This document shows, piece after piece, positions 1 to 59,374 of a stretch of DNA of 64,000 bases (the first letter of the stretch is position 1; every line of letters starts with the position of its first letter). A program made the position numbers and the translations under genes. Source of the stretch: an uncultured Pseudoflavonifractor sp. (GTDB lineage Bacteria > Bacillota > Clostridia > Oscillospirales > Oscillospiraceae); assembly GCA_947644625.1 (NCBI GenBank), contig CANRZY010000002.1:2878-66877 (forward strand), in the 5' to 3' direction. Below the pieces are notes generated by a model. That model searched no databases, was not told where the DNA came from, and saw only the letters and a list, made by a program, of their open reading frames with translations.

Positions 1-1139
1 GCGTCCTCAAAGTCTTCGGCGGACACGTCTACCCCCCGGCTGGAGGAGCGGGAAGCGGCCTCTTCCTTCCCGGAGGCTTTGCTGGAGGAGCGGGAAGTCC
101 CTTTCGTGCCGGTCAGTTTGGAGGCGTTGGCCCGGATGTCCGCCTCCAGCTTTTCCGCAACATCGGGATTGTCCTTCAGATACTGCCTGGCGGCGTCCCG
201 GCCCTGACCGATCCGCACCTCTCCCATGGAGAACCAGGAACCGGACTTCTGGACAAAGCCAAGCTGAACGGCCATATCCACCAGCTCTCCCTCCTTGGCG
301 ATCCCCTCCCCAAAGAGAATATCAAACTCCGCCTGTTTAAAGGGAGGCGCCACCTTGTTTTTCACGATTTTGGCCCGGACATGGTTGCCGATCACGTCGG
401 AGCCGTTTTTCAGCCCCTCTACCCGGCGGATATCGATACGGACGGAGGAATAGAACTTCAGCGCCCGACCTCCGGTGGTGACCTCAGGGTTGCCGTAGAC
501 CACCCCCACCTTCTCCCGGAGCTGATTGATAAAGATAACGATACAATTGGTCTTGGAAATGACGCCCGCCAGCTTCCGGAGGGCCTGGGACATGAGCCGG
601 GCCAGCAAACCCACATGGGCGTCGCCCATATCCCCCTCGATCTCCGCCCTGGGAGTCAGAGCCGCTACCGAGTCCACCACCACCACGTCAATCGCGCCGG
701 AACGGACCAGGGCCTCACAGATCTCCAGCCCCTGTTCGCCGGTATCAGGCTGGGAGATGAGCATGGAGTCGATGTCCACCCCCAGAGCCTGGGCGTAGAC
801 GGGATCCAGGGCGTGCTCGGCGTCGATGTAGGCTACCTCTCCCCCCCGCTGCTGGGCCTGGGCCACGATATGGAGGGCCAGAGTGGTCTTACCGGAGGAT
901 TCCGGGCCGTAAATCTCAATGATCCGGCCCTTGGGAACGCCGCCGATCCCCAGCGCTATGTCCAGAGCCAGGGATCCGGTGGGAATGGCCTCCACCACCA
1001 CATGGCTGTTTTCTCCCAGGCGCATAACAGCCCCTTTGCCATAGTCCTTCTCGATCTGGGCCAGAGCCGTATCCAAAGCCTTTTTCTTATCCGCAGCCTG
1101 TCCGGGCTGGGTAATGGGCGTCTTTTTCTTCTCTGCCAT
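1..1139 (-). CDS. recA: Recombinase RecA (3' end runs off window edge)
   Basis: Manual translation of the minus strand from ATG at 1139: MAEKKKTP...[35 protein letters not shown]...[11 protein letters not shown]...[16 protein letters not shown]...KNKVAPPFK; not in ORF track because the stop lies outside the window. Confidence 0.98.
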
Positions 1140-2330: not shown

Positions 2331-3311
2331 TTACCATTTGTCCGCTCCCTCCACCTGGGGCAGTACCTCGGTGAGAGCGCGTATGCCTACCTCGATCATG
2401 CTCTCGTCCGGCTCAAAGGTGGTCCAGCGCTGGATCGCCATGCCGGGGGTCCGGACCAGCCGGCACAGAGGGCCTTCATGGCCGCCCACATAGCGGTTAA
2501 ATTCATAGGTGATGCTGACGATCAAAGGCAGCATCAAAAGGTGCATCCCCATCCGGGCAAAGGTATTTTCCACTTTGATATAAGAGAATACCACACTGGA
2601 AAGAAGGATAGAAACAACGATCACAACAAACAAAAAGCTGGTGCCGCAGCGGGGGTGGTGCTTGGGCTGAATGCGAACGTTCTCCACCGTCAGGGGAAGG
2701 CCCGCCTCATAGCAGAAAATAGTCTTATGCTCCGCCCCATGATATTGAAAGGTACGGTGGATATCTTTCATTTTGGAGCACAGGATCAGATAGAGAAGGA
2801 AAATAATCACCTTCAAAATTCCCTCGATCAAATTTCTTCCCCAGATGGGGCAGCCGGGAAACAGCCGGGTAACAAGCCCTCCCAGGGCCGTGGGCAGCAG
2901 GATAAACAGCCCCACGGAAAAGGCCATTCCCATCACCACGGAAAGGGTAATGATAGCTCCCGTAAGCTTTTCGCTGCCCAGCTTTTCATCCAGCCATTTC
3001 TCCAGCCTGGAGGGCTCCTCCGGCTCTGTCTCTTCGGGGTAAAATTCAGCGGAGTACATCAGAGCGGTGACCCCGTTATACATGGAAGAGCAAAAATTTA
3101 CCACTCCCCGGATCAGAGGCAGTCCCACAAAGGGAAGACGGTCTTTCAAAAGCTTTCTGGGCTCTGTCTTGACCTCCAACGTCCCATCGCTCTTCCGGAC
3201 CACGATGGATTTTTTGTCGGGCCCCATCATCAGAATACCTTCCAAAAGAGCCTGACCGCCGATCATGGTCTTAAAGCCCCCGGCAGCAAGAAAAAGCAGT
3301 CGTTTCAGCAT
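2331..3311 (-). CDS. DUF1385 (YqhQ-like) membrane protein
   Basis: IGGQALLEGILM, YHGAEHK, HPRCGTSF motifs; usual neighbour of prmC. Confidence 0.9.
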   Translation of the reverse strand: MLKRLLFLAAGGFKTMIGGQALLEGILMMGPDKKSIVVRKSDGTLEVKTEPRKLLKDRLPFVGLPLIRGVVNFCSSMYNGVTALMYSAEFYPEETEPEEPSRLEKWLDEKLGSEKLTGAIITLSVVMGMAFSVGLFILLPTALGGLVTRLFPGCPIWGRNLIEGILKVIIFLLYLILCSKMKDIHRTFQYHGAEHKTIFCYEAGLPLTVENVRIQPKHHPRCGTSFLFVVIVVSILLSSVVFSYIKVENTFARMGMHLLMLPLIVSITYEFNRYVGGHEGPLCRLVRTPGMAIQRWTTFEPDESMIEVGIRALTEVLPQVEGADKW

Positions 3312-46904: not shown

Positions 46905-48758
46905 CTATCCCGGCCGAGCCAGCAAAAGCTCCCTCTCTAATTCCCTGGCGAAGATCTCCGCCGCCTGGGCCGGGTCGGAGACCGACGAGCCAAAGCTCAT
47001 CTGCCCGATCTCCACCTTGACCCCTCCACCCCCCCGGTCCTCCGCTCTGGCCTGGGAGGCCGTCAATACCCGCTCCCCCTGGTGGAGCAGGGCCGGGAAG
47101 TTATCATAAGGCACCCGGTCCAACCCGTAGGCGTAGCCCCCTGTCAGGTAGGAGGATGCAGGCGTCAGGGTCCTTTCCCCTGTCAGATAAGGAGAGTTGG
47201 GATCATAGCTGCCGGAAATCCCCTCCGGGTGGTCCCTCTTCCAGTTTCGCAGGGCAAGGGTCTGCTCTCCGTCCAACATTCCCTTGCTCTCCTCCAGTTG
47301 GACCATGTACTCCCGGTTCCAGGCCGCCCCGCCCAAAGCCTGTGTGTTGGCCCGGATGGCCTCGATCATCTCCAGCTCCGTATCCCGTAGGGCGATCCCC
47401 GTTTCGCTGGCGTTGTAGGCGTCCTTGGCAAGGCTTTCCGCCTCGCTCTTCAAGGCTTCGATCTGGGCCCCGATCTCCGCTTTTCGGGCTTCGTCCGCCG
47501 TGTCAAACTCTGTTTTCATGGCGGCGTACTCCTGGTGCATTTCCTCCAGCCGCTTTTGGCCCTCCCCCTCGTAGAGGGTATTGCCCTCTCCCGTGGCCAG
47601 CATACTCAGGGCCTCCCGTTGGTATTGCCGCTCCATGTTTTCCGCCATGCCCCGGCCCTCGCCGATCATGCTGTTCATGGCCTTCATTTCCTCGCCCAGG
47701 GAACCCTGGAAAGCCTCGTAGTCCGCCTGAAGCCCGGTGAGGGCGGTTTGGTTGTAAGAAGAGCCTATGATCCCGTTTAGCTCCTGTTCCCGTTTTTCCA
47801 GCTGGGTGGTCTTGCCCAGGTAGGTCTCCCCCGAATCCAGCATGGCGCTTGGGAAAGCCTTTTCCACCGCCCGGCGGAGCACCTCCGCCGCCTCTTCTCC
47901 CGCGATCTCTCCAGCGGCCACCTTGTCGTAGATCTCCTCCCGGCCAACACCATAGCGGTCCGCCAGCAGCCCCATGCCGTCGATCCCCCAGCTTTGAAAG
48001 TCCTGGATCAGCTCCGGGGTAGCCCCGCCGGATCCTATTTGTGCCAGAGCGTCCGCCATGGACTTTTCCCGCTGGGCGGCGTAGGTGGAGCCGGAGAGCA
48101 TTTCGTTGTCACGAAGGGCAGATTGGGTATCTACCATGCCTTTGACATGGGATTTGAAGGCGGCGTCTCGGTCTTTAAAGATTTTGATAACGCCATCGGC
48201 CATCCCCATCAAGGCCCCCGCTGCCGCTCCGATCGCTGTGCCGACTCCTGGTGTTCCCAACATAGTACCCGCCATAGCTCCCTGCCCGATATAAGAAGCT
48301 ATTGATGTTGCCATTGTTCCCCCCTCGCTACCAAGGAGACTATTTCCTACAACGTCAATCTCTTCTAACCCAAGCTGTCCCACCATTTTAAACACTCCGG
48401 CATTCTTGAGCTTTTCAAACAGGCCCTCCCCCGTAAGCCCCTGCATGTAATTTTCCGTCTCTCTAATCTTCCGAACAACCTCTTGCTGGTTTCGCTTCAT
48501 GCCATCTAGGGCTATCTGATTGCTTACCAGCGTTTCTCGGTCAGCTTCCCCCGTGGAAAGGAGCTGTTCCTTCAAGTCCTTCAGTTGTTTTTCCGCCCTG
48601 CTGATATCGAGCTCAATTTCATACTTATTTTTGCTCAGATTCTCCAACAGTGCCTCCATTTCTTCTTCATCTTTGGAGAATGCTCTTGTCACCCGAGACA
48701 TTTTTTTGAGAGTCGAGGAATATTTTTCCCCAGAACCTACCATAGTTGTTTCTTTCAT
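46905..48758 (-). CDS. Phage tail tape measure-like protein
   Basis: Helical Ala/Gly-rich; GTAIGAAAG; C-terminal YAYGLDRVPYDNFPALLHQGERVLT typical of Firmicutes tape measures; follows tail chaperone. Confidence 0.8.
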   Translation of the reverse strand: MKETTMVGSGEKYSSTLKKMSRVTRAFSKDEEEMEALLENLSKNKYEIELDISRAEKQLKDLKEQLLSTGEADRETLVSNQIALDGMKRNQQEVVRKIRETENYMQGLTGEGLFEKLKNAGVFKMVGQLGLEEIDVVGNSLLGSEGGTMATSIASYIGQGAMAGTMLGTPGVGTAIGAAAGALMGMADGVIKIFKDRDAAFKSHVKGMVDTQSALRDNEMLSGSTYAAQREKSMADALAQIGSGGATPELIQDFQSWGIDGMGLLADRYGVGREEIYDKVAAGEIAGEEAAEVLRRAVEKAFPSAMLDSGETYLGKTTQLEKREQELNGIIGSSYNQTALTGLQADYEAFQGSLGEEMKAMNSMIGEGRGMAENMERQYQREALSMLATGEGNTLYEGEGQKRLEEMHQEYAAMKTEFDTADEARKAEIGAQIEALKSEAESLAKDAYNASETGIALRDTELEMIEAIRANTQALGGAAWNREYMVQLEESKGMLDGEQTLALRNWKRDHPEGISGSYDPNSPYLTGERTLTPASSYLTGGYAYGLDRVPYDNFPALLHQGERVLTASQARAEDRGGGGVKVEIGQMSFGSSVSDPAQAAEIFARELERELLLARPG

Positions 48759-48858
48759 CGTTTTCCCTCCCTTGACTTTTTATCGTTTTTTGGTATCATT
48801 TTCTTTAGGGATTACTACTCTACTCCCTTGTTACTTCCTTCTGAAAGGAGTTTTACTT

Positions 48859-49002
48859 ATGTTAAAAAAATTCAAAAAATGGTGGAAGTCTCTTAACGTT
48901 CACCAACGTTTCCGATTTGTAACAATTGTTATAGGTTTAGTTCTTTCACTGATTACCATCTTCTACTTCCAGCATTTTTGGGCATCTATTGGAGGATTTT
49001 AA
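48859..49002 (+). CDS. Small single-TM protein (moron-like, 47 aa)
   Basis: AAAGGAG RBS; MLKKFKKWWK...FVTIVIGLVLSLITIFYF; AT-rich. Confidence 0.65.
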   Translation: MLKKFKKWWKSLNVHQRFRFVTIVIGLVLSLITIFYFQHFWASIGGF

Positions 49003-49024
49003 AACACAGGGAGGCGGTTCTTTG

Positions 49025-49047
49025 AACACAGGGGGACGGTTCTTTTG
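49025..49047 (+). repeat. 23-bp repeat, inverted partner of 53869-53891
   Basis: AACACAGGGGGACGGTTCTTTTG is the exact reverse complement of 53869-53891. Confidence 0.8.
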
Positions 49048-49066
49048 CCCCCCTCTTTTGTCCCCG

Positions 49067-49138
49067 ATGGCTGATAGCCGCCCCTACACGACCTTTCAAA
49101 TGAATGAGAGATATTGTAGGGGCGGATATCATCCGCCC
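49067..49138. repeat. GTAG-type REP doublet
   Basis: ...GCCGCCCCTAC and GTAGGGGCGGATATCATCCGCCC in inverted orientation. Confidence 0.7.
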
Positions 49139-49177
49139 GGAGGCAGGCCCTCCGTTTCCCTCCGCGGGGGCGTCCCG

Positions 49178-49339
49178 TCATTGCCTGTGAGCCAGGTCGT
49201 AGGACGCCAGCGCTGAGAGCAGGTCCTTTTCCCCTCCGCTCATGTGGTAGACCTTTTTCAGGTCTACCACATTTTTTTCGCGGAAGAGATAATACAGCAG
49301 ATTCAGCTCGGGATCGCTGCCCTCCCTCAGGCGTTTTTT
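49178..49339 (-). CDS. -1 frameshift extension of tail assembly chaperone (gpGT-like)
   Basis: Slippery A AAA AAC at 49339-49333; -1 frame open: KKRLREGSDPELNLLYYLFREKNVVDLKKVYHMSGGEKDLLSALASYDLAHRQ*. Confidence 0.75.
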   Translation of the reverse strand, partial: KKRLREGSDPELNLLYYLFREKNVVDLKKVYHMSGGEKDLLSALASYDLAHRQ

Positions 49340-49704
49340 ATTTCTTCAATGGTGGTCTTCCGATACCCGCTCAGCCGCTCCACTTCCCGTGCCATGTCCT
49401 CGATCTCTCCGGGCAGCAGCAGTCCCTTTACCGCCTCCGCCGGGGTGGGCCCGCCGTACTTTTCCATCAGGGCGGGGGCCTTCAGGTCAGGGTCCACGCA
49501 CCCGGCCAGCAGAATGGAGACCTCCGTATCCTCCGACGTTCCCTTGATGTCCTGCACCCGGCCATAGGGAAGGGCACGGAGGGTAAAGACCACATCCTCC
49601 CCCACCGCCTTGCTCAGCCGCTTGAGCTTATATTTGCCCGTGGGCAGGTCCTTATTTACATTGGGCGCTTCCGGCTTCAAGAGCCGGTCCAGCATTTCAC
49701 TCAT
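49327..49704 (-). CDS. Tail assembly chaperone (XkdN-like)
   Basis: KLKRLS...FTLRAL...GCVDPDLK...LLLPGEI...RLSGY; follows tube gene. Confidence 0.85.
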   Translation of the reverse strand: MSEMLDRLLKPEAPNVNKDLPTGKYKLKRLSKAVGEDVVFTLRALPYGRVQDIKGTSEDTEVSILLAGCVDPDLKAPALMEKYGGPTPAEAVKGLLLPGEIEDMAREVERLSGYRKTTIEEIKNA

Positions 49705-49806
49705 GTCGTCGCTCCTTTTTATGGTTTTTATTACATTTAATGAAAGGCCCCGATCAGGCTGCAAAGGAGGCTGGACGCTTTTGGTCTAAGCCCCCTTCTT
49801 CGCCCT

Positions 49807-50241
49807 TCAGGCCTGGATCATATCCAGGTACTCAAAGTCCTCAAAGGTAAAGGGGCACTCCACCTTTCCAAGCTGCTTAGCCTCGAAGTCCACCAGGGTC
49901 AGGTCGTCAAAGCTCACGTTGGAAAGACTCACCCGCTCGGCCCCGTAGGCGTCCGGGTCGTCCAGCTTGGTCACGATGGTGAAGCGGGGATCGGTCCCCT
50001 TCTTCATGGCCTCCCCCAAAAGCTGCCCCATGCGGGAGTTGACCTTGTGGAGCTTCAGGCTCCCCGTCCCCGACAGGCCCATGACCTTGTGTCCGTCCAT
50101 CAGCCGTCCGCACAGGGATACCGTTTCCTTGTCCGCAGAGATCTTGGCCTGGCAGCCGTAGCACTCCGCCACCTGCTCGCCGTCCATCCAGACCGTTCCC
50201 CAGGTACCGGCGATCACTCTTTTCGCAGAATCAATTTTCAT
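49807..50241 (-). CDS. Phage tail tube protein (XkdM-like)
   Basis: GTWGTVWMDG, GTGSLKLHKV, LDDPDAYGAERV, CPFTFED. Confidence 0.92.
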   Translation of the reverse strand: MKIDSAKRVIAGTWGTVWMDGEQVAECYGCQAKISADKETVSLCGRLMDGHKVMGLSGTGSLKLHKVNSRMGQLLGEAMKKGTDPRFTIVTKLDDPDAYGAERVSLSNVSFDDLTLVDFEAKQLGKVECPFTFEDFEYLDMIQA

Positions 50242-50257
50242 TTCATTCTCCTCCTTC

Positions 50258-51322
50258 TCAATGATTGACAACGATCACGATGTTTTCGATAGCGTCGAAA
50301 ACGCGGATGGCGCAGGCCAGAAACACGGTATTCCCCGTGTCCGCCGCCTTGATCTCCTGCTCATCCATCCCGGCGGTATCCACGCCCTTGTCCTCCAGAT
50401 AGGCCCGGACGCTCTCCACGTCGATCCCCACCGTGCTTCCCTCCTGAAGGATCCCCTCCTCCTCCAGGGAGATGAGGTAATCCCGCACAGCGGAGATCAG
50501 CAGGCACTTGTCGTCGTAGGAGGCAGTATGCCGCCCGATCCAGCTGTCCTGGCAGGCCCGGCGCAGGTTAGCCTGGATCAGGTCCCGTACCTCCACGATC
50601 TTGATCTTCTTCAGGCTTTCGTTCTGACCGGGGCGCAGGGTCTGAAGGCTGTTGACCCCCAAGCCGATCTTCACCTTTTCCCCATCGTGGATCAGCACCA
50701 GTTTCCCTTCGTCCACCGCCTCATCCGCCTCGACGCCGGAGAGCCGGTCCACATCCGTCACCTCGGGAAGGGGCGCGTAGGTACAGGACATGGTCATAGG
50801 CGTTCCCACCAACAGTCCGGCGATCCGGGAGCAATACTCTCCCGCCGTATAGGTCCGCTCCTTTTCCTGAATGCCGGAAGCGGCAAAGTTGACAATGGCC
50901 TCGTGGTCTCCGGCGTAGTTGGGCAGCACCGCCTTGGCGATGGAGGAGCGTTCCTCCCGGACTCCCTTCACCCAGTCGGCCAGCTCCTTGGCCTCCTCCT
51001 GGGTAAGGCTGGGGGGACCCGCCAGATAGTCAAAGGACTGGCTGCCCAACCAGGCCAAAGGCTCCTCAAACCCGGCGGCGTCCGCCGCTGTCACGCACAA
51101 AAGCACCTTTTGGGGCCGGGTCTCATAGCCGGTAAAGGCGCGCTGGACATAGGCCCTGTTTTCCGCCCCCAGCTCCTTGGGGATCTGCCGCTCCGAGGTC
51201 AGAGTATAATTCCCCGCCGCCTTCGCGTCCCGGACAATGACTGCCACGATCCCCTTACGGATCCGCTGCGCGGCAGTCTCCGCCGCCGCTTTAAAAATCA
51301 CATTGATACTAGGTAAACCCAT
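50258..51322 (-). CDS. Phage contractile tail sheath protein (XkdK-like)
   Basis: MGLPSINVIFK, YCSRIAGL, GVNSL, KKIKIVE, DAIE. Confidence 0.92.
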   Translation of the reverse strand: MGLPSINVIFKAAAETAAQRIRKGIVAVIVRDAKAAGNYTLTSERQIPKELGAENRAYVQRAFTGYETRPQKVLLCVTAADAAGFEEPLAWLGSQSFDYLAGPPSLTQEEAKELADWVKGVREERSSIAKAVLPNYAGDHEAIVNFAASGIQEKERTYTAGEYCSRIAGLLVGTPMTMSCTYAPLPEVTDVDRLSGVEADEAVDEGKLVLIHDGEKVKIGLGVNSLQTLRPGQNESLKKIKIVEVRDLIQANLRRACQDSWIGRHTASYDDKCLLISAVRDYLISLEEEGILQEGSTVGIDVESVRAYLEDKGVDTAGMDEQEIKAADTGNTVFLACAIRVFDAIENIVIVVNH

Positions 51323-51353
51323 TTTTTGTTCCTCCTTGTTTCTGTTGTTTTTG

Positions 51354-51791
51354 TTATTGGATCTTAACGTTCACACTTTGGAGAAGGGGATATTCCTCCT
51401 CCTTGTCCCAGCGTTCGCTGAACGAAACGCTCAGCGTCACCTGGGCGCTTTCATAGCTGCGCTCCCCCTGGATCCGGTCCACATGGGGGCTTCTGTCCCC
51501 CACGGGAAAATATCCGTGGGAGAAAAGGGCCATCACCTCTGCCTCCCGCTGACAGAGAGCGGGGACGTGGCTGTGGTGGTAGAGATCCGTTTCCAGGTAA
51601 ATGGTGATCTTTCCCTCCACGGTAAAGCGGGTATCGTAGCCCCCCGCCTCCTCCTGAACCACCTTTCCCATCTCCACCAGAAAGGCGGGCCGCTGAAACC
51701 CCTGGGGAACATAGTCGGTATAGCAGATCACCTCCGGCCACCGGTCCCTCAGCCGCTGGATCATTCCGTCCATAATATCAAGCTGCGTCAT
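51354..51791 (-). CDS. Phage tail terminator-like protein
   Basis: Position before sheath; VPQGFQRPAFLVE motif. Confidence 0.7.
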   Translation of the reverse strand: MTQLDIMDGMIQRLRDRWPEVICYTDYVPQGFQRPAFLVEMGKVVQEEAGGYDTRFTVEGKITIYLETDLYHHSHVPALCQREAEVMALFSHGYFPVGDRSPHVDRIQGERSYESAQVTLSVSFSERWDKEEEYPLLQSVNVKIQ

Positions 51792-51834
51792 GTTCTCTTC
51801 CGAGCCTCCCTACTCCCGGCGGACCTCCGCCGCC

Positions 51835-52434
51835 TTACGGTTCCACGATCCTTTCGATCTCTGTCTCATGCCTGTCCTCCTCCAGTTCATGACATACCTT
51901 TACCCACCAGGGCGCCGGGTCGTCCCCCACCGTCACCAGGCTGCCCAACCGGAGCTTCACCTCAGCGGGAGTCACCAGCGCCAGCCGAACCGTGTTTCGG
52001 GCCATGGGCCCCTGCTGCTCATGCTCCTGAAGCTTCTCGACGCACACAGCGTCAAAGCGGATCTGCCGCCCGGTCTCCCGCTCCTCTCCCTTGCAGGGCC
52101 GGAGCGTGACCAGTGCGGCTTTTACCGTCAGGTACCCTCTTCCCAGCGGGACGATAGCGGTGGGCAGATAAAACTTCCCGTTCCACATGATGGCGTCATG
52201 AAGGGTAACGCTCTGTCGGCGGAGGATAAATTCCGTCTCCCGCCCCCTCACACCGCTGCCGGTGTATGCAGCAAAACCCCCGGTGGGCGCTGCCTTTGCC
52301 CAGATCTTTCGGTACTCGGTCCATTCCCAGCCCTCGCTGTCCCGGCAGCAACCGCAGCGCCTCAGAGGCCGGAAGGCCAGCAGGCTTATCCTCTGATCCA
52401 GCTCCCCAACGTCAGGACTTCTGATCGTCGCCAT
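51835..52434 (-). CDS. Head-tail adaptor/closure-like protein
   Basis: GELDQRISLL...KIWAKA resembles head-closure proteins; position after connector. Confidence 0.7.
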   Translation of the reverse strand: MATIRSPDVGELDQRISLLAFRPLRRCGCCRDSEGWEWTEYRKIWAKAAPTGGFAAYTGSGVRGRETEFILRRQSVTLHDAIMWNGKFYLPTAIVPLGRGYLTVKAALVTLRPCKGEERETGRQIRFDAVCVEKLQEHEQQGPMARNTVRLALVTPAEVKLRLGSLVTVGDDPAPWWVKVCHELEEDRHETEIERIVEP

Positions 52435-52771
52435 TTTCTCCCCCCTTTCCGGCGTCGGCGTTGGAGCCGTCCGCTTCCTCTGTTTTCTTAAGCTGTTCGA
52501 TGATTCGTTGGACCGCCTTGCTATCCTCCGGGGCGGTTTCGTCAACGCTCCGCCGCTCATAGTAGGCCAGGGCCAGACAGTGGCAGGCCATGTCATAGAG
52601 CGCCCGCTTTCCGCTTCCGGCGGGGGGCAGCGTTACCCCGGCTCCCGCCAGGTACGTCCGGGCGGCCAGGACCGTATCCACCACCAGGGCGTCGTCCTCC
52701 TCCCCCTCCACACGCATATAAGCTTTGGCCGCCGCCAGCTCCTCCGGGTACAGCAATTCGTATGCCTCCAT
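52412..52771 (-). CDS. Head-tail connector (gp6-like)
   Basis: AAKAYMRVEGEEDDALV...AARTYLAGAG...LAYYERR...IIEQLK. Confidence 0.85.
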   Translation of the reverse strand: MEAYELLYPEELAAAKAYMRVEGEEDDALVVDTVLAARTYLAGAGVTLPPAGSGKRALYDMACHCLALAYYERRSVDETAPEDSKAVQRIIEQLKKTEEADGSNADAGKGGENGDDQKS

Positions 52772-52961
52772 AGACTATCCCCCCCTTCCCTGCCGCCTAT
52801 GGCCGCGCTGCTTTTTCCGTTCCTCCATACCTCTCCTCCTTCAAATCTTTTATAGCTCCAGGCTTCCGCAAAGCCAAAGCCAACTGTTTTTCCGGGCCTT
52901 CCCCGGACCGGACGGCAAAGCAAACGCATTTCTGCCGCCATGCAGAGGGCTTCTTCCCTTG

Positions 52962-52976
52962 GTACGCAATACGCAC
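52962..52976. promoter_or_regulatory. Putative repressor operator 2
   Basis: GTACG-CAATA-CGCAC, near-copy of the 53142-53156 palindrome. Confidence 0.55.
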
Positions 52977-53083
52977 CAACTCTTGCAAAAAAAATTTTGT
53001 AAAGTCTCCCTCCGCCCAATATCAACCGCTGAAACATCAGTCTGCACCATGCCGCGTCTTTATTGGTACTTTCCACGTACCAT

Positions 53084-53112
53084 ATGATACCACCCCATCC
53101 GGTACGTGTCAA
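53084..53112 (-). promoter_or_regulatory. SigA-like promoter for tail cassette
   Basis: TTGACA-N17-TATCAT on the minus strand. Confidence 0.75.
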
Positions 53113-53141
53113 GTGATTTTTTCTTATTTTTTAAAAATGTG

Positions 53142-53169
53142 TTGCGCAATACGCAATTTGTGTTATAAT
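53142..53169 (+). promoter_or_regulatory. Repressor promoter with overlapping palindromic operator
   Basis: TTGCG-CAATA-CGCAA palindrome over the -35; TG-n-TATAAT -10. Confidence 0.65.
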
Positions 53170-53224
53170 CATAGTACCTTCCCCTGACAAGGGCAAGCGA
53201 AGGTACTATAGGGAGGTTATATGT

Positions 53225-53854
53225 ATGGGAATTGGAGAAAATATTCGTCTTCACAGGCGTATGCTGAACATGACTTTGGAAGAGGTGGCGGCAAAGGTGG
53301 GAATCAGTCGGCAGACCTTGAGCCGGTATGAGACCGGGATCATCAGCAACATTCCCTCCGACAACATAGAGGCCCTGGCGCAGGCGCTGGACACCACCCC
53401 CGCCTGTCTCATGGGCTGGGAGGAGCCTCCGCTTCCCCCTGAGCTTGTCCCCATTGACTCCTCCCGCTTCAAAAAGATTCCTATTCTGGGCTACATCTCC
53501 GCAGGGCTTCCTTTGTATGCCGAGGAGCATGTGGAAGGGTATACCTACACCGACCTCAACGGCGGCGCCGAGTATTTTGCCCTTCTTGTTCGGGGAGACA
53601 GTATGAACGCCATCGGCATTAACGATGGTTACCAGATCATCGTCCGGCGGCAGGAGGAGGTAGAGAACGGGGAGATCGCCGTTGTGATGGTCGGTGAAGA
53701 AAATGCTACCGTAAAGCGGTTTTACAGCACGGACTCCACCGTTACCCTTATGCCTCAGTCCACAAATCCCATCCATCAGCCCCAGATCTACGATCTGAGC
53801 AAAATACCCATCAAGGTACTGGGAAAAGTGGTCAAGGTAGAGTTCACTTTGTAA
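53225..53854 (+). CDS. XRE HTH + S24 peptidase (CI/LexA-like) repressor
   Basis: MTLEEVAAKVGISRQTLSRYETG HTH; SAG cleavage site; GDSM serine; TVKRF lysine. Confidence 0.93.
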   Translation: MGIGENIRLHRRMLNMTLEEVAAKVGISRQTLSRYETGIISNIPSDNIEALAQALDTTPACLMGWEEPPLPPELVPIDSSRFKKIPILGYISAGLPLYAEEHVEGYTYTDLNGGAEYFALLVRGDSMNAIGINDGYQIIVRRQEEVENGEIAVVMVGEENATVKRFYSTDSTVTLMPQSTNPIHQPQIYDLSKIPIKVLGKVVKVEFTL

Positions 53855-53868
53855 GACCATTCCAAACA

Positions 53869-53891
53869 CAAAAGAACCGTCCCCCTGTGTT
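53869..53891 (-). repeat. 23-bp repeat, inverted partner of 49025-49047
   Basis: CAAAAGAACCGTCCCCCTGTGTT. Confidence 0.8.
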
Positions 53892-53913
53892 TATTGCCCC
53901 TGTGTTTAAGCAT

Positions 53914-53949
53914 AAAAAAGACCGGCCCTTTATAGGGTCGGTCTTTTTT
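53914..53949. terminator. Bidirectional terminator
   Basis: AAAAAAGACCGGCCCT...AGGGTCGGTCTTTTTT. Confidence 0.75.
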
Positions 53950-53950
53950 A

Positions 53951-53976
53951 TGGTGCACGAGGTGGGACTCGAACCC
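53951..53976 (-). other. tRNA 3'-end fragment (probable prophage att site)
   Basis: Revcomp GGGTTCGAGTCCCACCTCGTGCACCA = T-loop + acceptor 3' strand + CCA; no 5' half upstream. Confidence 0.8.
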
Positions 53977-54137
53977 TCCCCACCCATCCGCAAACGTACT
54001 GCGCCGCAATGATTTTAGCCGTATGCGCCATCATTGTGTTGTATTCCGTGTGACAAATATCGTGGTCCCCCTCACTGCCGGGGCCCCCCTCATACAGGTA
54101 GGCATACCATCCAACAAATAGAGAAAGGATCCTTACA

Positions 54138-54506
54138 ATGTCTATCTACATTCCGACTCCAGAGGAGCTGGAAGCAAAATACGAGCCCCACACCATTCTC
54201 CTGCTCCGGCAGCTAAAGATTCCTGACAATCTGCGTGGTTTTACTTACCTCTCCTCCGCCATTCCCCATGCCGCCGCAAACCCCTCTCAGATACTTTATG
54301 TCACAAAGGAGTTGTATCCTTATGTAGCCCGAAAATTCACCTCCACCGACAGCCGGGTGGAGCGGGATATCCGCAACGCCATTCAGATCGGCTGGCGGCT
54401 GGGAATGCAGGAACCCCTGGAGCAGATTGCCGGAACCAGCGTCCCACAGCGCCCCACGAACTCCTTTCTAATTCTGCTGCTTGCCAACTACATACGTCTT
54501 CATTAG
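54138..54506 (+). CDS. Stand-alone Spo0A C-terminal DNA-binding domain protein
   Basis: LKIPDNLRGFTYL...VTKELYPYVA...SRVERDIRNAI...RPTNSFLI; no receiver domain. Confidence 0.88.
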   Translation: MSIYIPTPEELEAKYEPHTILLLRQLKIPDNLRGFTYLSSAIPHAAANPSQILYVTKELYPYVARKFTSTDSRVERDIRNAIQIGWRLGMQEPLEQIAGTSVPQRPTNSFLILLLANYIRLH

Positions 54507-54547
54507 AGCAGACGGGGGTGTCCAATTTGGACACCCCCGCACCTTTC

Positions 54548-55174
54548 TTATTTTGCCTTTATATCAAGCCAAAATGCTCCATATGTTCCATTGTTTTCTG
54601 TACCGCTTAAGGTAAACACCGCATCTCCCACCATACACTCACACGCCTCCTCCGCCGCCGATGGAATGTTGTCCTGCACCCATTCTTTCGTGGCCGTGGT
54701 ATCCGACGTATCATAGGGGACTGTCGCCGCATAGCCCAGGTACATTTGGGCCAGTTCCACAAACTCATCATTGGACAGAGTATACTGGCTCTCTATCCCG
54801 ATAGATCCGCTGATAAGCTCAAAATCCTCATCTGCGGAAAGCTGATAGTCATACATGACGTTAAGCAGCGGATGCGTATAACTTGTTCCCGAGGAGTACG
54901 CAAATACCGCCTTCGCTTCTTCAGGTGCGGACTTGATGGATGCTTCCTCCAGCCCAAAACTTGCCAAGCCCATCCGGATGTCGGTGATATGACTGCCGGG
55001 AAACCCTCTGTCATCGACTACCTGTTCTTCCTCAGGGGTAGGCTCCGGTGTCGGCTCTATGACCTCCGGCGTCGGCGATACCGCTTCGGGGCGACTCGAC
55101 CCAGAACAGGCAGACAAGGAAAACAACAGTATCGCAACAAGAACCCCAAGAATCAGTTTATAAAGTCTCTTCAT
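54548..55174 (-). CDS. Acidic lipoprotein (moron)
   Basis: Lipobox LSAC; PTPE-rich linker. Confidence 0.8.
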   Translation of the reverse strand: MKRLYKLILGVLVAILLFSLSACSGSSRPEAVSPTPEVIEPTPEPTPEEEQVVDDRGFPGSHITDIRMGLASFGLEEASIKSAPEEAKAVFAYSSGTSYTHPLLNVMYDYQLSADEDFELISGSIGIESQYTLSNDEFVELAQMYLGYAATVPYDTSDTTATKEWVQDNIPSAAEEACECMVGDAVFTLSGTENNGTYGAFWLDIKAK

Positions 55175-56652: not shown

Positions 56653-58058
56653 TCCGGTATCCCCTCTATCCTGTCTGCATACTCGCTCCAGCCTTCAGCC
56701 GTTTTGTACGCCTCCACGCTTTCCGCCGGGACATAGATGGTAAAGCATATCGCTCTTTCATCTACAGATATAGGCGGACCCGATGTGGCAGGGGGTGTTT
56801 TTGGATGAAGATACATCTTCTCCGCTTTCAGCACGACGTCAAATGCATATTTCCCTATTGATTCTACCGTTTCCGGTATGTGGATCTCCCTCCAGTTTAT
56901 CGCCACAGAAAACACTCCATAGCCTTGGCCATTCCCATAGACTCCTAACCCTTTCAGTCCGGGGGAAAGAATAATTTTTTCAGCCGCCGTGCAGCTGAAG
57001 AACACACCATCATAAATATTAGTGACTCCTTCAGGGATCACGATCACGGTCGCCGCAGTGCAATATATAAACGCATCGCACCATATCTCCTTGCACCCTT
57101 CCGGAATTGTGATGGAGGTTATCTCTGAGCAGGTCATAAAGGCATTTTCATCTATTGTCTCAACCCCTTCCGGCAAGGATATAACCCGGGCCCTCGAACA
57201 ATACCCAAACGTCCAACGAGGTATAGAGGTTACACCCTCCGGCAGTATAATGGCTGTCAGCTTATGGGGGCTGTAAAACGCAAAGCCCCATCTTCCCAGT
57301 GATGTGATCCCCTTCGGCAAGGTCAGGTACTCCATACTGTAGCACATATCAAAGGCATATCCCCCGATCTCTGTACGCGCACCGATATGTACCTCCGTAA
57401 CAGCGCTTTTCAAATATTCCTTCTCCGAAAACACTGCTGTACTGCTTTCCCCGCCCAGTTTCAGGGTACATCCCTCCGCCACGGATAAGGAAATGGTATA
57501 CCTGCCCGGCTGGGCATAACTGTGTGTCAGGGTGCAGTATTGATAGCCTGTATTTACCGGATCCGTCTCCACCGGCGACCCATCTCCCCAGTCTACGCTC
57601 ACGCCCCCCTCCACCGTCTGGCTAAATTTGAGGGGCACGGTAAGGGCCTCGGGCTTGTCCGATACCAGATCCAGCTTGATCCTGGTGGCCCCATCGTCGG
57701 TGATGTAGATGGCACCGATGTTGAGATAGCCGTACTTTGCCACATAGGCCTTTGCCTTGTCCAGCGTATAGTTGTAACCCTGGAAGGTAAGCCCCTCATG
57801 CTTTGGCGGCTCGGGCAGCGCCTCCAGAAGGGCGAACTCCTCCGGGGTATATGTCTCCACCAGCAAGCCGTCATAATCGTAGAGGTTGACCTCCTTTTCC
57901 TTCAAGGGTCCCTTCCGGGCCTCGATGGCCCGGACCTGGTCTCCGTAGGCGGAGAAGGGGGTATCCTCCTCCACCTGCCGCCCTTTTTCCAGAAGGGCCT
58001 GCCGGATATCCGCCTTGGTCCCCGCCAATTTGGCCAGCTTGTCCGCAACGGTCCCCAT
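56649..58058 (-). CDS. BspA-type leucine-rich-repeat (LRR_5) protein with PKD-like domain, probable virion adhesin
   Basis: VDWGDGS...THSY; repeated I/LPEGVTxI...AF..C units. Confidence 0.85.
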   Translation of the reverse strand: MGTVADKLAKLAGTKADIRQALLEKGRQVEEDTPFSAYGDQVRAIEARKGPLKEKEVNLYDYDGLLVETYTPEEFALLEALPEPPKHEGLTFQGYNYTLDKAKAYVAKYGYLNIGAIYITDDGATRIKLDLVSDKPEALTVPLKFSQTVEGGVSVDWGDGSPVETDPVNTGYQYCTLTHSYAQPGRYTISLSVAEGCTLKLGGESSTAVFSEKEYLKSAVTEVHIGARTEIGGYAFDMCYSMEYLTLPKGITSLGRWGFAFYSPHKLTAIILPEGVTSIPRWTFGYCSRARVISLPEGVETIDENAFMTCSEITSITIPEGCKEIWCDAFIYCTAATVIVIPEGVTNIYDGVFFSCTAAEKIILSPGLKGLGVYGNGQGYGVFSVAINWREIHIPETVESIGKYAFDVVLKAEKMYLHPKTPPATSGPPISVDERAICFTIYVPAESVEAYKTAEGWSEYADRIEGIPE

Positions 58059-58312
58059 CAGACCACCTCCCCGTTGATAGCGTCAAGGGCGGCGGCAATG
58101 TCTCCCAACGGCTGATCGATCCTGACCGCCATTGCCTGCTCTACCTGGTCCATAGACAATGGATCTTCCCAGCCGAAGTCTCCATCCTTTGCTGAGAGCT
58201 TGGTCAGCGTCTGCCCTTTGATGCCTCCAGCAAGGATGGCTCCCGGCGTTCCAAGTTCTATCGTCTGCAACTCTCCGTCCATCGTTCTGATGGCCACCTG
58301 CCGCGCTAACAT
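58058..58312 (-). CDS. Small phage tail-associated hypothetical protein
   Basis: AAAGGAGG RBS; GGIKGQTLTKLSAKDGDFGW and GDIAAALDAINGEVV motifs seen in tail-region proteins. Confidence 0.75.
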   Translation of the reverse strand: MLARQVAIRTMDGELQTIELGTPGAILAGGIKGQTLTKLSAKDGDFGWEDPLSMDQVEQAMAVRIDQPLGDIAAALDAINGEVV

Positions 58313-58327
58313 GTCATCCCTCCTTTT

Positions 58328-59076
58328 CGCTCTTTGTTCCTTTCCGGGGCGCCGATACGCCCCGGATCGAGAATACACCAGTTATTGGTGGAATAACGGG
58401 ACTATCTTTTGATCTCCGCTCCTGTTACCGGTTTACGGCGATCCCTTGCGCTTCCGGTTGGGCCGCCTCCGCCCAACCGTACTCTACTCCATTCGTGCGG
58501 GTGGGTTCCCGCCTTATTTTCCCCCTGAGCCTTTCCGCCCAGGGCTATGTTTCGATAGTCTCTACACCTTCCGGGAGCCTTTCTCCCGGCTTGGCACGGT
58601 ATTTCCCCTGCCGCCTTTCGGCGGCGCCGCTGCGGGTTCTCTTGATTATATCGGACTGCTTCGTGGCGGCAATGCCGACGGCGCATAGCAGCGTTGCATT
58701 CCTTACCTTTTCCACGCCGACGGGCTTAGTTATTCAATTGTTTGCTGGAGTTGCCGTCCGCCCTTATCCCGTCCAACACCGTTAGCCCAGCTTATCGCCG
58801 GACACCCCCCGCCGTGAAGGCTAGCTGGGGTTCACAAGGTAGTTTTGCGTCTGCCCTGGTCAAAAGGTGTGGGTCAGTCACGCCCAAGGTAGACCTCCAT
58901 GATTCTGCCACGGATCTTGTCGATCTCAGCCGCATACATCTTTAGCATTGAAATCATCCTTTCTTTGTGTTCCAGGCCGGGAACGGCCTGGCCGTTAAGC
59001 GGATAGGTACCGGCATACCGAGCCTGTATCACCCCTCCTTTCCCAGTCTCGGCGCCTCGGAAAAGAACAAAGAGCG
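58328..59076 (-). ncRNA. Group I catalytic intron/ribozyme, intergenic, closed by 28-nt complementary arms (possibly circularly permuted)
   Basis: Core motifs in canonical order: P3 CCTTGTG(58839-33)/CGCAAGG(58450-44), GCTAACGGTG, AATACCGTGCCAAG, GGTGTAGAGACTA, GAGTAGAGTAC, AAAGATAGTCC; P7 GAGACTA/TAGTCC; P9 GTTATT/AATAAC; arms 59049-59076 and 58328-58355. Confidence 0.88.
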
Positions 59077-59104: not shown

Positions 59105-59374
59105 TCATCCAGCGGCCTCCACCGTCTTCCGCGCCAGATACTGCACCGTGTCGGTGGCGTGGATTACCTGGTAGCTGCCCAACTGCCCTCCAGCCTCCTC
59201 GATCATCTTCTCGATGGCCGCGCTGATTGCTTTTGCCTCCGCCGCTGCGGCCCGCTGCCGGTCCCCCAGCGCTTTCGGCAGCGTAAGGGACCGGATCTCA
59301 AACCCCTCGGGGCAGATCCCCTTGCCAAAGTCCACCCTGACTTGCTCACTCTGTACCTGTACCGCTATTCCCAT
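59105..59374 (-). CDS. Hypothetical protein
   Basis: GGAGGT RBS; 89 aa ORF in the operon direction. Confidence 0.65.
   Translation of the reverse strand: MGIAVQVQSEQVRVDFGKGICPEGFEIRSLTLPKALGDRQRAAAAEAKAISAAIEKMIEEAGGQLGSYQVIHATDTVQYLARKTVEAAG

Follow-up and report, generated by a model that had tools for sequence, protein, structure and literature searches.

A group I core between two intact prophage genes

The window, a stretch of 64,000 nt from an uncultured Pseudoflavonifractor sp., carries on its minus strand a 749-nt cassette that lies between two intact genes (Table 1), with genes for a minor-tail-like protein, a BspA-type repeat protein, a holin and an amidase among its neighbours. 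Nine of the 16 window ORFs that we tested match the corresponding region of G070, a genome of the same genus, with their order preserved, and head genes (names read by eye) lie further upstream in G070, which identifies the region as a prophage. Orthologues of both cassette-flanking genes are intact in G070 and only 14 nt apart; therefore, unlike a group I intron, the window cassette interrupts no host gene. The downstream 84-aa gene has its own start and keeps its length where the cassette is absent. These comparisons bear out the initial annotation, which had placed a free-standing core between genes of a prophage tail region. Promoter and terminator scans gave matches at chance level only.

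Nineteen sequencing runs from 12 studies were listed for the window stretch, with stated habitats of gut, mouse or rat metagenomes, and two of the 19 are possible sources of it. The cassette was present in six of eight sequencing runs as contig pieces with no differences over much of its length, none of which spans the whole; thus, its sequence is not an assembly artefact. No joints were found in any of the eight runs. Downstream of the lysis genes and beyond a repressor and a Spo0A_C gene, the window also carries a second, headless tail module (46905–55174) with a connector-like gene, terminator, sheath, tube and tape-measure-like gene, which ends at host genes; paralogues of its sheath and tube, at about 77%, lie on contig C13.

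Table 1 Coordinates of the cassette, its parts and its flanking genes in the window
Feature	Position	Strand	Remarks
Whole cassette	58328..59076	−	749 nt, between two intact genes; homologue L204 13958–13193, 766 nt
Upstream gene	59105..59374	−	89 aa, intact; orthologue in G070
5′ arm	59049..59076	−	Inverted-repeat pairing; extends to 59046
Candidate site A1	59043..59045	−	UG (P9.0 partner of 58398–58397) and candidate omega-G59043; inferred; homologous G13919 in G070
5′ strand of predicted long-range helix	59028..59035	−	With 58397–58390 (extended P9.0 of A2); pairing and duplex energies
Candidate site A2	59023..59024	−	Conserved GG after long-range helix, candidate omega-G59023; inferred; G13903–13902 in G070
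5′ segment, predicted circular exon under A1	58887..59042	−	156 nt, 52 codons, one stop-free frame holding AUG
52-codon ORF	58874..59032	−	SD-like runs near 59039–59034 and 58966–58958; AUG 58957; stop inside P1 loop
P1 hairpin	58849..58894	−	U58887·G58856 wobble; 5′ splice site predicted after U58887
First-proposed P10 strand in P1 loop	58862..58867	−	Not conserved in G070
P3 5′ strand	58833..58839	−	Pairs with 58450–58444
P3.1-type helix	58786..58829	−	Insertion between P3 and P4; pairing
P4 around ~175-nt P5 extension	58596..58782	−	58782–58778 / 58600–58596; read from sequence
P6 region, J6/7, P7 5′ strand	58556..58595	−	G-binding G58560; core profile and pairing
P7.1 / P7.2 insertions	58451..58555	−	Core profile and pairing
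P3 3′ strand and P8	58411..58450	−	Pairing; P8 read from sequence
J8/7 and P7 3′ strand	58399..58410	−	C58400 of G site; core profile and pairing
Post-P7 segment	58359..58398	−	8-nt linker; G58378 predicted buried in hairpin 58390–58386/58380–58376; G58362 in a second, weak hairpin
3′ arm	58328..58355	−	Inverted-repeat pairing; extends to 58358
Downstream gene	58058..58312	−	84 aa, intact; has its own ribosome-binding site, immediately beyond 3′ arm; orthologue in G070

The complete minus-strand group I core that the initial annotation had reported is well supported. A profile built from 41 related intron cores, from which the window copy was excluded, matches 58605–58399 with an E value of 1.2e-16. 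The P3–P7 core is present with conserved J6/7 and J8/7 motifs, and P3, P3.1, P7 and P7.2 pair as expected. In P7, G58560–C58400 with bulged A58561 provides the G264–C311 pair and bulged position 263 of the G-binding site. P1 stands directly before P3, with P2 absent, as it is in several canonical relatives read by eye. From the general features of the class together with P7.1/P7.2, we take the cassette to be IA2-like. These two hairpins, which mark the subgroup in the available part of the IStron ribozyme report (PMC4227781), occupy 58555–58451. The covariance search that had been suggested as a check gave no match: Rfam searches in gathering and E-value modes, and RF00028 run on both genomes, did not detect the cassette. 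The large insertions are the likely cause of the missing RF00028 match. In neither copy of the cassette (the second is described below) does the sequence show clearly the adenosines that J4/5 usually has on its 5′ side. Folding z-scores of the two copies are −4.1 and −7.0, and in the unconstrained fold of the window copy the 59046–59030 region displaces P1.

A second copy keeps the clamped layout

The two ends of the cassette were said to form a 28-nt duplex with one G–U and one A–C. We confirmed this pairing, which gives 28 bp with one U·G and one A×C and lengthens to 31 nt (59046/58358) across one further mismatch; its inverted-repeat score is 24, against a mean of 9.9 and a maximum of 14 in 100 dinucleotide shuffles. 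The core profile had a further match in the tail region of G070, some 3 kb upstream of the slot that corresponds to the window slot and is empty there, so that the two copies occupy different tail-region slots in prophages of the same genus. The arms of the G070 copy likewise span 28 bp (93% complementary; score 26, against a maximum of 14 in 100 shuffles) and have a sequence unlike that of the window arms, which argues for the earlier view of them as RNA architecture. Both of their mismatches are G·U on the transcribed strand, as are three of the four arm mismatches over both copies. The cassette thus has the terminal homology arms of permuted (PIE or 3′-cis) ribozymes. Comparable arms occur in only two of the 310 related-core locus records listed (120 + 42 + 95 + 53, overlapping sets), namely L074 and the tRNA-like L107, and 28-bp arms occur in none of the in-gene canonical relatives. 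In L107, a 29-bp stem encloses an intron-bearing tRNA-like gene (read by eye). In G070, the 3′ arm (L204 13220–13190) covers the ribosome-binding site of the next gene, the window counterpart of which lies just outside the arm.

P1, proposed to present the 5′ splice site at a U58887 wobble, forms as described (58894–58884 / 58859–58849), with U58887·G58856 and an additional A×C mismatch, 58890×58853 at position −4, that the initial annotation did not mention. G070 keeps both the wobble and the −4 A×C mismatch, and its compensatory changes are two double ones (U–A to C–G and U–A to A–U) and one single (G–C to G·U). A first choice of P1 in G070, at U13789, was replaced by U13766 on the basis of homology with the window P1; this choice preceded the computation of the 153-nt length given below. 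Compensatory changes between the copies also occur in P3, with two double changes, in P7, where the 262–312 pair flips from G–C to C–G, and in P4, which flips from U–A to A–U (read from the sequence); the comparison covers two full members, and the tests applied to them were chosen after looking at the sequences. The 5′ segments are weakly homologous (score 60, against a maximum of 57 in 500 shuffles), and the post-P7 sequences are unrelated. The G070 G-binding site (L204 13492–13486 / 13280–13275) has C262, U263 and G264·U311, a combination seen once among 108 cores surveyed, which would weigh towards the last doubts about catalysis. By this comparison, the clamped structure is real and conserved in two prophages, and the arms, P1 and the predicted 5′ splice site at U58887 are its conserved architecture.

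In genome samples at the genus, family and order levels, searches by pattern and by short DNA found no third full member, with G070 as the sole match; one genome-sample pattern would itself have missed G070. BLAST gave no match for the window cassette in phages or for the G070 copy in phages and plasmids. A full-length BLAST over 301 family genomes missed G070, so these blanks carry little weight. Pattern scans of viral contigs showed no further member among the matches listed (in two scans, 40–41 loci each had only 300-nt flanks), nor did scans of genome contigs or of metagenome contigs, in which all 16 matches were chance. A candidate from G750 is a canonical intron and not a member of the cassette. 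Loci from flanking-protein searches contained no core, and one of five whole records carries an unrelated intron.

Diverged homologue fragments, at a depth of about 3 with errors possible, appeared in run X19 (at window 58761–58910 and 58390–58540) and in run X8 (at 58622–58677). X19 has 24 differences, and the 12 that were listed include a double compensatory change at 58823/58792, two that are wobble-keeping, one that is pair-breaking and four within the P1 loop. A further intergenic group I core, antisense to its neighbours, lies on the minus strand of L074 (2794–3109; IMGVR_UViG_3300032317_000216; RF00028 55.5 bits). It is clamped by 27-bp arms. The 5′ arm runs directly up to P3, and upstream there is no P1; instead, a P1-like hairpin of 4 bp that includes a U·G stands just before the 3′ arm. 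L074 is a candidate for a different permutation. It has no full-length match in phages.

Candidate 3′ splice sites

The initial annotation placed the 3′ splice site upstream of the 5′ splice site, at a UGG just inside the 5′ arm. This motif is conserved: the first UGG after the arm contains G59043 in the window and G13919 in G070. The UG/CG P9.0 proposed for candidate omega-G59043 can be drawn from the letters, with 2 bp in the window and a single pair for the homologous G in G070, although the site is ambiguous with respect to G59023 and the downstream Gs. The accompanying P10 between GAAAGG and the P1 loop did not fare well. Its 6-bp duplex (59042–59037 / 58867–58862) is present as letters and has an energy of −13.0 kcal/mol with the P1 loop; in 2,000 shuffles, a YGG with an equally good duplex arose no more than 8 nt from the arm in 1%, and anywhere in the segment in 12%. 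However, this P10 begins 5 nt from the wobble G, which P10 abuts in the canonical introns L149, L162 and L165 (by eye), and the P1 loop of G070, just 8 nt long, reaches no better than −0.5 kcal/mol against the homologous exon. Thus, among the features for which homologues were to be compared, the arms, P1 and the UGG are kept in G070, whereas P9.0 shrinks to one pair and the exon-start guide expected upstream in a permuted ribozyme, the first-proposed P10, is absent.

A second upstream candidate is suggested by the strand after P7, which has its best 5′-segment partner at the homologous slot in both copies (59035–59028 and 13912–13906; −8.3 and −7.5 kcal/mol), with compensatory changes between them. 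The slot-wise shuffle rates of this long-range helix are 0.023 and 0.028, an equally good duplex occurs anywhere in the segment in 35–38% of shuffles, and the post-P7 strand of G070 has two further partners that come close (−7.1 and −6.3). On these pairings, G59023 fits the conserved long-range helix better than does G59043. In the A2 register, P10 next to the wobble is weak (−3.5 and −3.0 kcal/mol), and the A2 strands and Gs are predicted to be buried in local hairpins (0.98–1.0). G59043 is predicted to be unpaired (0.93) in a mini-construct without P1. The A1 and A2 registers compete for G58397, and the back-splice junction may differ from the one first proposed.

Downstream of the core, G58378 and G58362 are possible 3′ sites. 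G58378 has textbook geometry, with a 2-bp P9.0 and a 2-bp adjacent P10, like the queF intron L162; it is predicted to be paired (0.99), as part of a local hairpin that outcompetes the textbook P9. No downstream 3′ site is common to the two copies, and G58378 has no counterpart in G070. Joining at G58362, or at G13255 of G070, would produce an in-frame fusion of the small ORF with the gene that follows. The position of the P9 hairpin is non-discriminating: it starts no more than 6 nt from P7 in 87 of 109 relatives, at 8 in the window and, weakly, at 4 in G070.

A proposed back-splicing model

We propose, with slightly less than even confidence and from the layout of the two copies, that this host-gene-free, IA2-like cassette cleaves after U58887 and back-splices just inside the 5′ arm to release a circle of about 135–160 nt. 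Transcription of the late operon would fold the arms. They would take the place of a P9.1/P9.2 helix whose loop has been opened, and the 5′ segment would thereby come to lie beside P7. An exogenous G would then attack after U58887, and the freed 3′-OH would attack the upstream omega-G, leaving the late mRNA cut, with its two pieces held by the arms. Should back-splicing occur, the junction has a somewhat better than even chance of being at G59043, yielding a stop-free ring of 156 nt with ribosome-binding sites; a junction at G59023, with a ring of 136 nt, is distinctly less probable, and nearby positions, 59046 (159 nt) among them, are the remaining option.

The circle is the predicted product of either copy. 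Under A1 it would measure 156 nt in the window and 153 nt in G070; each length is divisible by 3, the codon phase of the junction is identical, and in both copies one frame has an AUG behind an SD-like run and no stop around the ring. This frame is open in 6% (window) and 11% (G070) of shuffles; with a factor of 1/3 for length, the chance of the G070 result is about 0.04. The A2 circles are both 136 nt (omega-G59023 or 13902). The ring peptides of the two copies share no alignment, and we found no homologue of the window small-ORF or ring peptide. We favour a role in which the expression of the downstream tail and lysis genes would be controlled through mRNA processing, with the circle as a product. 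It is rather unlikely that a circular mRNA of 156 nt (153 nt in G070), stop-free and equipped with ribosome-binding sites of its own, arises by back-splicing at the arm-proximal G and serves rolling-circle translation or ribosome trapping in the late phase.

We favour back-splicing because the arms, the arm-proximal UGG, the long-range helix and the ring frame, conserved parts for which forward splicing has no need, all point to the 5′ segment. It is further supported by the second copy, which has the same layout in a different intergenic slot, and by the predicted pairing of G58378 and exposure of G59043. In the engineered 3′-cis design, whose layout matches that of the cassette, arms near omega-G are sufficient and P10 can be dispensed with (PMC11417360). 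Counting against it are the absence of P10 in G070, the competition between A1 and A2 and the predicted burial of the A2 elements, as well as the frequency of the long-range duplex in shuffles, its near-equal alternatives in G070 and the displacement of P1 in the unconstrained fold. The geometry of G58378, the in-frame fusions, the G070 G site and the ring peptides that fail to align also weigh on that side.

Alternative explanations

The cassette could instead splice forward, removing an intron from 58886 to 58378 (or to 58362) from a small leader ORF and coupling or fusing this ORF to the next gene, with the arms serving as a processing stalk or insulator. We consider this unlikely. It has in its favour that all parts of the core stand in canonical order, that G58378 has both P9.0 and P10, that ligation there would end the ORF 1 nt before the next start and that G58362 and G13255 would give in-frame fusions. 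The covering of the next ribosome-binding site by the G070 3′ arm fits such coupling, as do the canonical splicing of this subgroup in phage tail genes (L331 and L392) and the long stem around the intron-bearing tRNA-like gene of L107. However, the copies share no conserved downstream site or exon, every downstream candidate is predicted to be paired, and the arms would be unneeded. Moreover, the two copies have different flanking genes, and the 84-aa gene possesses a start of its own and is neither longer nor shorter where the cassette is absent.

RNase III acts on long stems. The ribozyme may perform the first step alone, cutting the late mRNA after U58887 by G addition or hydrolysis without ligation, while the arms hold the pieces together or let RNase III excise the cassette. 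This reading, to which we also assign a low probability, is consistent with P1 and the core being the best-conserved parts, with the lack of any 3′ splice site conserved with both P9.0 and P10, and with the atypical G site of G070, but it leaves unexplained the conserved arm-proximal UGG, the stop-free ring of 3n length and the long-range helix to the 5′ segment.

More improbable still is that the cassette is a structured RNA that descends from a group I intron and is now decaying or lacks catalytic activity. The G·U at the G site and U at position 263 in G070, and the missing J4/5 adenosines of both copies, would suit such a relic, whereas the window copy has a canonical G site, the helices show compensatory change rather than decay and the folding z-scores of both copies also count against this reading.

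A MITE-like DNA element, with the arms as transposase-bound terminal inverted repeats and the intron as cargo, is very improbable: the insertion slots do differ between the two prophages and AAAA flanks both arms in the window, but the G070 copy has no matching flanking direct repeat, on which the idea of a target-site duplication failed, the arm sequences differ between copies, the arms have no second copy in the 1.9 Mb of G000 (89% complete) and the cassette encodes no transposase, so that the sequence-conserved terminal repeats, target duplication and multiple copies of a MITE are all missing. We also rejected an IStron, as the 43 nt between P7 and the arm hold no ORF for an IS605/IS607 transposase or TnpB module at the 3′ end. 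Judged by its core, G site and P1, the cassette is a group I ribozyme and not a host-gene intron, an IStron or a MITE.

Relation to known systems

The closest likeness is to engineered PIE constructs and the engineered 3′-cis group I circularisation of Qi et al. 2024 (PMC11417360). In these designs, the whole core stands at the 3′ end, arms at both ends replace P9.0/P9.2, omega-G lies beside an arm and the exon lies between omega-G and P1; the cassette has this layout with a candidate omega-G and a predicted exon. Circles have been demonstrated for the engineered RNAs, whereas the cassette is natural, is read from sequence, retains candidate Gs downstream and is embedded in a polycistronic region. 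The available part of PMC12336344 concerns engineered systems only, and PMC10085705 does not mention group I introns.

Natural group I back-splicing has been described for ND5-717 of corallimorpharian (coral) mitochondria (Chi et al. 2019, PMC6545197). According to the portion of the report available, ND5-717 belongs to a eukaryotic organelle, is split in P8 because the intron contains the genome, and restores a host mRNA, with a circle of 2.1 kb. Terminal arms are not mentioned for it in that portion; the cassette, with arms and without a host gene, would instead have its opening within P9. Circularly permuted group II introns (Roth et al. 2021, PMC8637638) resemble our reading of the cassette as free-standing bacterial ribozymes with reversed splice sites and a small circle, but the available text describes group II chemistry and fold, circles of 15–86 nt, about 290 members and activity shown in vitro. 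In the open-access literature (PMC, bioRxiv), we found no natural arm-clamped bacterial or phage group I example and no natural group I back-splicing beyond coral mitochondria.

If the cassette back-splices, engineered arm-assisted circularisation by group I ribozymes would have a natural equivalent in bacteria or phages, and circularly permuted group II introns would have a group I analogue. The cassette would also supply bacteria with circular RNA in a programmed way, possibly with an endless reading frame, and offer a ready-made compact tool for circularisation. Should no ligation take place, a host-gene-free group I ribozyme that is conserved and held by a terminal stem would still be a use of this type of RNA that we did not find in the open-access literature (PMC, bioRxiv).

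The IStron ribozyme shares the core motifs and P7.1/P7.2 with the cassette but, as described in the available part of PMC4227781, carries an IS. The canonical IA2-like introns of phages and Firmicutes (L062, L141–L182, L331 and L392; recA, queF, nrd and tape-measure hosts by eye) also share the core motifs and P7.1/P7.2, but they interrupt a host gene, whereas the cassette interrupts none. Among these, L331 (~2450–3120) and L392 (~490–770, minus strand) are canonical introns of the same subgroup in tape-measure-like genes, two of them in tandem in L331 (identity by eye). By the reading frames of their host genes, the introns of L149, L161, L228, L237 and L285 seem to end in A rather than G (by eye).
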